Below, in pieces: positions 52,710 through 52,942 of a DNA stretch of 64,000 nucleotides; the first letter of the stretch is position 1; each line of letters begins with the position of its first letter. Under the pieces are notes generated by a model. That model was not told the origin of the DNA, made no database searches, and saw nothing but the letters and a program-made list of their open reading frames with translations. The DNA comes from a phage. The stretch lies in NCBI GenBank assembly GCA_024614665.1, contig GCA_024614665.1_4861.1, one strand, 5' to 3'. The translations under genes were made by a program, and so were the position numbers.

Positions 52710-52744
52710 CTCAAAAAATAAAATAGGCCCCGAAGGGCCTATTT
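52710..52744 (-). terminator. intrinsic terminator
   Basis: hairpin AATAGGCCC-CGAA-GGGCCTATT with T-run on the minus strand, between the family-A remnant and 51381..52700. Confidence 0.6.
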
Positions 52745-52751
52745 TTAGCTG

Positions 52752-52931
52752 TTATGGTGAAGTACGCCATCCCTTTAACTCCAGCTGTTTCGACGTCTGT
52801 TTGGGTAACCGTGCGACCGTACGCTTTATTAGCGAAATTGAATCTGTGCTGATTCGTCCTGCGGGTTCAGGGTTATCCCTTACGACTTGCTGACAGAGTA
52901 ATTCCAGTTCGGGTGCGCTATACAACCCCAT
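52752..52931 (-). pseudogene. remnant of a family-A gene (5' end fused to a frame-shifted 3' end)
   Basis: 59-codon ORF MGLYSAPELELLCQQVVRDNPEPAGRIS... matches the N-terminus of 54847..56265; its 3' nucleotides resemble the 3' end of 59682..60509 in a shifted frame. Confidence 0.55.
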
Positions 52932-52942
52932 GAAGTCTCCTG

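Follow-up and report, generated by a model that had tools for sequence, protein, structure and literature searches.

The closest described counterpart of the locus studied here is 'paralog family B' of the jumbo phage SPN3US, which comprises gps 83, 138–154, 161 and 237, with gps 138–154 forming its array part, and which is perhaps the largest paralogue family within any single phage genome (PMC5105663, PMC5694885). The number of family B members varies widely between phages, so that plasticity in size is already on record (PMC5694885, PMC5105663). Gps 138–154 were detected in the SPN3US virion by mass spectrometry, and earlier SPN3US proteomics assigned the family B proteins to the head (PMC5694885). 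In a 2026 preprint on phage Goslar, DUF7941 proteins are proposed to assemble into long, flexible head-to-tail fibres for host recognition, anchored at the peripheral baseplate as a 'fibre cloud', with the N-terminal domains serving as docking sites for the next protomer (10.64898/2026.04.21.720040). The DUF7941 (PF25613) array represents the Chimalliviridae counterpart of the SPN3US family. Tandem paralogue arrays are known to gain and lose units by unequal or short-homology recombination, as exemplified by the gene 'accordions' of poxviruses and the exchange of tail-fibre cassettes among T-even phages.

The window analysed here, a 64,000-nt stretch of phage DNA, matches Seoulvirus jumbo phages (SPN3US-like phages of Salmonella and Escherichia) at 94–99% identity. 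It is colinear with SPN3US at approximately 97–98% identity except at the site of gp151–153, where an intact gene triplet is replaced by a short composite open reading frame (ORF). This site is very probably a non-functional, multi-layer recombination and deletion scar within the DUF7941 virion-protein array. Like family B itself, the scar belongs to the array, lying inside it and deriving from two of its members, an A gene of gp151 type and a D gene of gp144 type; unlike the family members, it is non-functional and consists of 32 N-terminal residues followed by an out-of-frame tail. A search of the literature on SPN3US and Seoulvirus, including the Lh1B paper, retrieved no mention of the locus, its alleles or the loss of gp151–153. 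It is a real but ordinary pseudogene scar within a known and highly plastic paralogue family, and its main value lies in providing a natural knockout of gp151–153 and a marker of triplet excision.

Composition of the remnant and its place in the array

The minus-strand genes between about 49 and 64 kb of the window correspond to the array termed 'paralog family B' in the SPN3US literature. A triplet consists of an A gene and its two followers, B and C, whereas D-type genes encode members of about 280 aa with a full-length DUF7941 (PF25613) Pfam match, such as 59682..60509. In the longer members (A2 and the gp154 and gp155 orthologues), the Pfam match covers the first ~150–165 residues. PHROGs also divide the genes, assigning A genes to phrog_3589, D genes to phrog_1037, and both B and C genes to phrog_1062. 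SPN3US carries three triplets, gp145–147, gp148–150 and gp151–153, followed by gp154 and gp155.

Triplet 2 of the window is encoded on the minus strand by A2 (54847..56265; Pfam and PHROGs), B2 (53845..54834; SPN3US comparison and PHROGs) and C2 (52943..53842; gene calls in relatives and phrog_1062), the last being a 299-aa orthologue of gp150, the final intact gene of the triplet, and the 'family-B gene' of the first-pass annotation. Downstream of the scar on the same strand lies the gp154 orthologue with its DUF7941 N-terminal module (51381..52700; Pfam and colinearity with SPN3US), followed by the gp155 orthologue (49189..51366, minus strand), in which Pfam recognizes a DUF7941 N-terminal module and a GP38 adhesin domain. 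This phage tail-fibre adhesin domain contains glycine-rich stretches, and its combination with the DUF7941 module supports a role of the array in host recognition. The intact gp144-like D-type gene (59682..60509, minus strand; 276/276 DUF7941 match) is the closest paralogue within the window of the 3' part of the scar, and is followed by its own terminator hairpin (59658..59677, minus strand; hairpin scan).

Several minor features of these genes deviate from SPN3US or from the automated ORF calls. The A2 gene encodes 472 aa compared with 498 aa for SPN3US gp148, owing to an in-frame deletion of 78 nt with an 8-nt direct repeat at its ends (window 55010..55017), by which length the two BLAST pieces overlap; the same break is found in SPLA5c, and A2 of locus L016 is likewise 472 aa long. 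The program ORF with a GTG start at 59679 is over-extended through the gp144 terminator hairpin, its likely start being the ATG at 59634, and the program ORF with a TTG start at 53878 overlaps B2, its likely start being the ATG at 53842, in agreement with the calls in relatives.

The spacer between the stop of C2 and the ATG of gp154 spans 52701..52942 (242 nt); the 199 nt given in the first-pass annotation omits the hairpin. Within it lies the remnant ORF (52752..52931, minus strand; 59 codons plus stop), identified from the ORF list and a PHROG match and interpreted as a pseudogene, whose peptide begins MGLYSAPELELLCQQVVRDNPEPAGRISTDSISLIK and whose translation is exactly as previously quoted. 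Five nucleotides upstream of its ATG, just past the TAA of the upstream gene (52943..52945), a Shine–Dalgarno sequence, AGGAG (52937..52941, minus strand), is retained from the former gp151-type gene and is identical to the one preceding gp151 in SPN3US.

The 5' piece of the ORF (52836..52931, minus strand) aligns with the first 96 nt (codons 1–32) of a third A-type gene. Because it matches SPN3US gp151 at 88/96 nt and A2 of the window at only 65/96 nt, it is assigned to the gp151 orthologue and not to a copy of 54847..56265, and BLAST colinearity with SPN3US picks up again exactly at 52836. The N-terminal resemblance to 54847..56265 that had been noted earlier is real, with a local nucleotide score of 39 against 19.9 ± 2.0 (maximum 28) in 300 shuffles, identity at 19 of the 28 quoted residues and at 22/36 over 36 codons, but that gene is a paralogue only, the true counterpart being SPN3US gp151.

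The 3' piece (52745..52835, minus strand), identified by alignment and translation, represents the last 91 nt of a gp144-like D-type gene in an altered frame. Its ancestral stop codon TAA is preserved at 52745..52747, and an older 1-nt deletion lies near 52760/52761. In frame +2 relative to the ORF the piece still reads the ancestral C-terminus, ANKAYGR..GVKGMAYF, consistent with the frame shift recognized in the first-pass annotation, and the 27 C-terminal residues of the ORF are thus an out-of-frame reading of the D-type gene. The match to the end of the gp144-like gene (59682..60512), originally described as about 45 nt, extends over 112 nt, crossing the stop codon into the hairpin with a single 1-nt gap. 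Its score of 64–65, compared with 18.9 ± 2.2 in shuffles, is roughly 20 standard deviations above expectation, and the shuffle maximum was again 28.

The two pieces meet at 52835..52836 (minus strand), the youngest deletion joint, reading GATTCAATT/TCGCTAAT (CAATT/TCGCT), which was delimited by comparison with the L008 and L020/L021 alleles and carries 1 nt of microhomology. A clean microhomology or slippage origin of this joint was considered and rejected: the CAATT repeat is 3 nt off register, and the TTCG-TTCG tandem would give a different product.

A Pfam scan of the 59-aa ORF gave no match at E<=0.01, and the 27-bit DUF7941 gathering score was not reached, whereas the A2, gp144-like, gp154-like and gp155-like proteins all pass the profile threshold. 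The ORF matches only positions 1–39 of the 512-position A-family profile phrog_3589. It retains residues 1–32 of an N-terminal globular module of ~150 residues that would be needed for head-to-tail assembly and, lacking the complete module, falls outside functional DUF7941 membership.

The missing third triplet and its alleles

Relative to SPN3US, 41 nt of the window (52795..52835) replace 3,346 nt (locus L001, 5655–9000), which hold gp151 from nt 97 onward, gp152 and gp153 in full, and the 5' portion of a stub. Across the 64-kb window the missing segment has no orthologue, and only two weak paralogous matches of at most 140 nt were found. All three lost genes are annotated as virion structural proteins in the SPN3US record. 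SPN3US and the majority of the 34 matching phage records retain an intact third triplet exactly at the place of the stub, which substantiates the original proposal of an internal deletion that removed array genes. The proposal that the locus records cassette turnover also holds, and can be refined to the loss of three genes and a layering of at least three events.

Two-triplet alleles are also present in the finished isolate genomes SPLA3, EC001 and Lh1B, and the ORF at the site varies among relatives, measuring 127, 98, 91, 59, 54, 30 or 11 aa. The longest version is found in L008, a 242.5-kb metagenome contig with two triplets and an in-frame mini-gene of 127 aa, which joins nt 1 to ~204 of a gp151-type gene (through ..ECTVYY) to the last ~145 nt of a D-type gene. 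In loci L020–L022 the ORF is 98 aa long; its 5' end is of the gp151 type until about ..CGCAGG.., where it gives way to a stub of the SPLA5c type, whereas the 91-aa ORF of SPLA5c itself has an A4-type 5' end. In SPLA3 a 30-aa ORF, the length also seen in the SPN3US stub, results from fusion of a gp151-type 5' end at the joint known from SPN3US, GAATCAGC/TGGAG. In EC001 and Lh1B, only 19 nt remain after the ATG (11-aa ORF), and an imperfect 6-nt repeat, GCG(C/T)AC, marks the joint. The window allele is 163 nt shorter than that of L008, equivalent to 76 nt fewer than that of L020/L021.

Since the fusion of gp151-type 5' ends with the older stub differs in position among L008, L020–22 and SPLA3, with three points in all, at least two or three separate recombination events must have removed triplet 3. 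The scar demonstrates that gp151–153, whose loss has occurred through at least three different joints, are dispensable in nature, and the natural two- and three-triplet variants offer near-isogenic material for studying the role of the triplet. A triplet-sized loss in another register, from mid-B3 to mid-B2, is seen in SPLA5c, where the resulting hybrid B gene (L003, 10276..11350) is broken into ORFs of 591 nt and 399 nt.

The junction of the window is itself widespread. A protein search with the 59-aa ORF recovered the same-junction ORFs P0001–P0005, located in at least 12 independent ENA/Logan assemblies, several of them on contigs of 213–241 kb, and always following two triplets; loci with this junction include L009–L019. 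In most of the same-junction assemblies, a TGG-to-TAG change truncates the ORF to 54 aa. A junction-spanning 25-mer was absent from IMG/VR viral contigs and from GTDB genome contigs, while a 24-mer covering the scar and hairpin matched only SPN3US in IMG/VR and gave two matches among metagenome contigs, including L008.

The same joint appears in two flank haplotypes, the window flanks resembling L008 and those of L019 resembling L021 on both sides, a pattern that requires either repeated deletion or short-patch recombination. It is rather unlikely, though by no means far-fetched within the preferred explanation, that CAATT/TCGCT is a hotspot at which the joint arose more than once. The two haplotypes and the CAATT direct repeat located 3 nt from the joint point in this direction, but with 1 nt of microhomology and a joint off the repeat, identical recurrence is improbable, and the mosaic flanks indicate that recombination can move haplotypes, including the gp151 5' ends of co-infecting three-triplet phages. 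We favour a joint that formed once and then spread by recombination. Over 51381..54834, the closest genome changes gene by gene in comparisons with L008–L021, SPLA3, EC001 and SPN3US, so that B2, C2 and gp154 form a mosaic; B2 of the window, for instance, is 99.3% identical to SPLA3 and 94.2% identical to L016, although L016 shares the stub allele of the window. Recombination across this region appears to be pervasive, and, given the mosaic flanking genes, the events yield no clean phylogeny, nor do flank identities settle a single versus a repeated origin.

In L016 (4232..7651), which carries a window-type stub, gp154 and gp155 are replaced by a 504-aa DUF7941 protein and ORFs of 60, 268 and 298 aa. 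As its genes differ past the hairpin, the hairpin seems to act as a mosaic boundary for cassette exchange.

Older scar, order of events and coding status

The D-type 3' scar sits upstream of gp154 in every Seoulvirus examined. A 1-nt deletion is common to all Seoulvirus alleles (GCGTACT-TCACCATAACAGCTAA versus GCGTACTACCACTATAACAGCTAA in gp144), although EC001 has kept no more of this stretch than what follows its own joint. The 3' piece of the remnant thus predates the triplet deletion and was not brought in by the event that removed the triplet. In SPN3US, where triplet 3 is intact, gp153 and gp154 are likewise separated by a stub. It has a ribosome-binding site (RBS), an ATG and 84 nt of another A-type 5' end (MGFYSSTALELLCRLIQRDNPQHAGRIS), to which the final ~40 nt of the D-type gene are attached, and the same hairpin follows. 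The SPN3US stub and its SPLA5c equivalent (WNT48651.1) share position, 3' scar, 1-nt frameshift, hairpin and gp154 RBS with the window locus. They differ in having an A4-type 5' end, only ~64% identical to the 5' piece of the window, in their joints (GAATCAGC/TGGAG in SPN3US, DSIG/ECT in SPLA5c), and in following an intact gp153. Stubs at this site, such as WNT48651.1 (91 aa, 'virion structural protein'), would be better annotated as pseudogenes.

An intact version of the D-type gene is found in Erwinia phage Phobos, where gp143 (280 aa, ending in ..AGVKGRAYYHYNS before the stop) lies directly upstream of the gp154 homologue, and the hairpin and the RBS of this homologue are shared with the window. 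Together with the shared scar, this arrangement indicates that an ancestral adjacency of D-type gene and gp154 is preserved by the scar. The Phobos gp143–gp144 junction resembles the window locus in its C-terminal class (ANKAYDRVV.QTGID.AGVKG.AYYHYNS, followed by the stop), hairpin and downstream RBS, but differs in that the gene is full length and the triplets come after the gp154 and gp155 homologues. The gene order in Phobos (L005, 724..13536) is D-type genes, gp154 and gp155 homologues, and A-B-C triplets, compared with D-type genes, triplets, gp154 and gp155 in SPN3US. The position of the triplet block on different sides of gp154/gp155 implies a relocation between the Seoulvirus and Phobos lineages.

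What the sequences show directly is the homology of the pieces, where they join, the series of alleles and the absence of coding constraint; how the layers succeeded one another and how the crossovers took place we infer as follows, with the first two layers ordered by parsimony. In the oldest layer, common to all Seoulviruses examined, the D-type gene upstream of gp154 would have shrunk to its last ~145 nt, become fused behind an A-type 5' part and acquired the 1-nt frameshift, while the terminator and gp154 RBS were kept. This A::D joint would lie at ..YY(D/N)/(G/E)(P/S)LNSNTV.., where gp151 and gp144 share a CCGTT(T/A)AACA patch. In the second layer, the gp151 5' end of a three-triplet ancestor would have recombined with the homologous 5' part of the stub, the crossover falling in the short conserved coding patches AGRISADSIG and ECTVYY; approximately 3.3 kb (gp151, gp152 and gp153) would thereby have been removed, leaving a chimeric mini-gene as in L008 and L020–22. 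In the third layer, CAATT/TCGCT would have been generated by an illegitimate deletion that involved 1 nt of microhomology and took out 163 nt as measured against L008, or 76 nt against L020/21; the resulting frame shift would have given rise to the 59-codon ORF. The scar thus pinpoints short conserved coding patches at which whole triplets appear to be excised.

By analogy with poxvirus accordions and T-even fibre cassettes, the shared 5' module would supply the homology for deletion, with a stub left behind and copy number varying; unlike in those systems, the unit here comprises the three genes A, B and C of a jumbo-phage triplet. One might extend the analogy and regard the 5' homology patch of the stub (AGRISADSIG, ECTVYY) as a standing landing pad for shedding triplets and regaining them from co-infecting relatives, a proposal that we consider doubtful. 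If true, it would describe a gene accordion tuning the DUF7941 host-recognition fibres, with the stub retained by selection, and would explain why some form of the stub survives in every genome examined.

The remnant has the properties of a pseudogene: its homology is to fragments only, intact orthologues occupy the same place in relatives, its frame is disrupted, and neither ORF conservation nor purifying selection is evident, as lengths and joints vary. Within the group sharing the window junction, 25 of the 232 nt of the remnant region vary, distributed 8/7/10 over the three codon positions, albeit few sites from a recombining population; gp154, with 50 variable sites in 1,320 nt (14/5/31), displays the customary excess at third positions. 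The ORF is assigned to the pseudogenes because neither its length nor its frame is conserved and its variable sites favour no codon position. The intact C2 gene (52943..53842) also lacks such a bias, with 90 variable sites in 900 nt (32/30/28) in the same group, so that this statistic is weak when taken alone and only supportive. Diversifying selection, or else gene conversion from paralogues, could account for the even variation in C2.

That the 59-codon ORF is a genuine small gene, encoding a DUF7941 cap or modulator of fibre assembly or a translation-coupling leader, is highly improbable. Such a role would fit the RBS and ATG kept in every allele, the persistence of window-type ORFs in many assemblies (same-junction ORFs in at least 12), and the docking function proposed for DUF7941 N-terminal domains (10.64898/2026.04.21.720040). 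Against this, 32 of ~150 residues of the N-terminal domain are left and the 27 C-terminal residues are out of frame; length and frame differ among close relatives, the nonsense allele predominates, and variable sites show no third-position bias, contrary to what would be expected of the conserved small gene that the first-pass annotation had named as one possible refutation of its reading. Translational coupling is unlikely, as ~6 nt separate the ORF stop from the hairpin and 51 nt separate it from the gp154 ATG. Judged from its sequence, the stub itself most likely has no function, although a junk peptide may be translated from the surviving RBS and ATG, and expression of the ORF, with some role for the N-terminal peptide, is conceivable.

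A reversal of polarity, in which two triplets and a stub were ancestral and phages of the SPN3US type gained gp151–153, has a similarly slim chance. The array evidently grows as well, its triplets being paralogous, and the triplet block of Phobos sits on the other side of gp154/gp155. A 96-nt fragment (92% identical) in an out-of-frame fusion, however, cannot be the source of a full-length gene. In addition, SPN3US has a separate A4-type stub after gp153 with the same older 3' scar, so that gp151-type stubs are best read as products of recombination between gp151 and that older stub. At least three fusion points exist, and the majority of the 34 matching phage records are genomes with three triplets. 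An assembly artefact through collapse across paralogous repeats carries negligible weight: although the array is repetitive, with A-type 5' ends 60–90% identical, the identical junction recurs in independent ENA/Logan assemblies from many samples on contigs of 213–241 kb, its 1 nt of homology is not a repeat that an assembler collapses, and other two-triplet alleles occur in the finished isolates SPLA3, EC001 and Lh1B.

The terminator-like hairpin and downstream signals

Under the preferred reading of the locus as a layered deletion scar, the hairpin that follows the remnant was inherited with the D-type gene end. This intrinsic-terminator-like hairpin with its U-tract (52710..52745, minus strand) was identified by hairpin scan and folding. 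The hairpin, at 52745..52720 on the minus strand, has an 11-bp stem (5 GC pairs) and a UUCG loop followed by AUUUUUU, and thus combines the stem-loop and U-tract downstream of a coding region that define intrinsic terminators by sequence. It forms in the minimum-free-energy fold of an 81-nt stretch (−23 kcal/mol, z = −2.4), and is kept in all alleles and in Phobos.

The first-pass annotation described this element as the usual intergenic hairpin of the array. The hairpin is indeed present but is not usual: most array junctions measure 2–14 nt and lack one, and only three strong terminator-like hairpins are found on the minus strand between 47 and 64 kb, after the gp144-like gene, the scar and the gp155-like gene. 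Their rarity fits the attribution of the scar hairpin to the D-type gene end. Immediately downstream, the RBS of gp154, GAGGA, was located by sequence at 52708..52712 (minus strand). All observed deletions spare the hairpin, the gp154 RBS and the stop codon of the upstream gene, and the putative terminator and the gp154 translation signals are likely the only functional parts of the spacer.

A sigma-70 promoter claim was also evaluated and discarded: 12 sites were found compared with 19.5 ± 4.2 in shuffles, and the consensus does not apply here, as the phage transcribes with RNA polymerases of its own. Among relatives, the terminator loop occurs in flipped orientation on an unchanged stem, reading TTCG in the window, CGAA in L014, TGAA in SPN3US (L001) and TTCA in L007, differences that look like small hairpin inversions.
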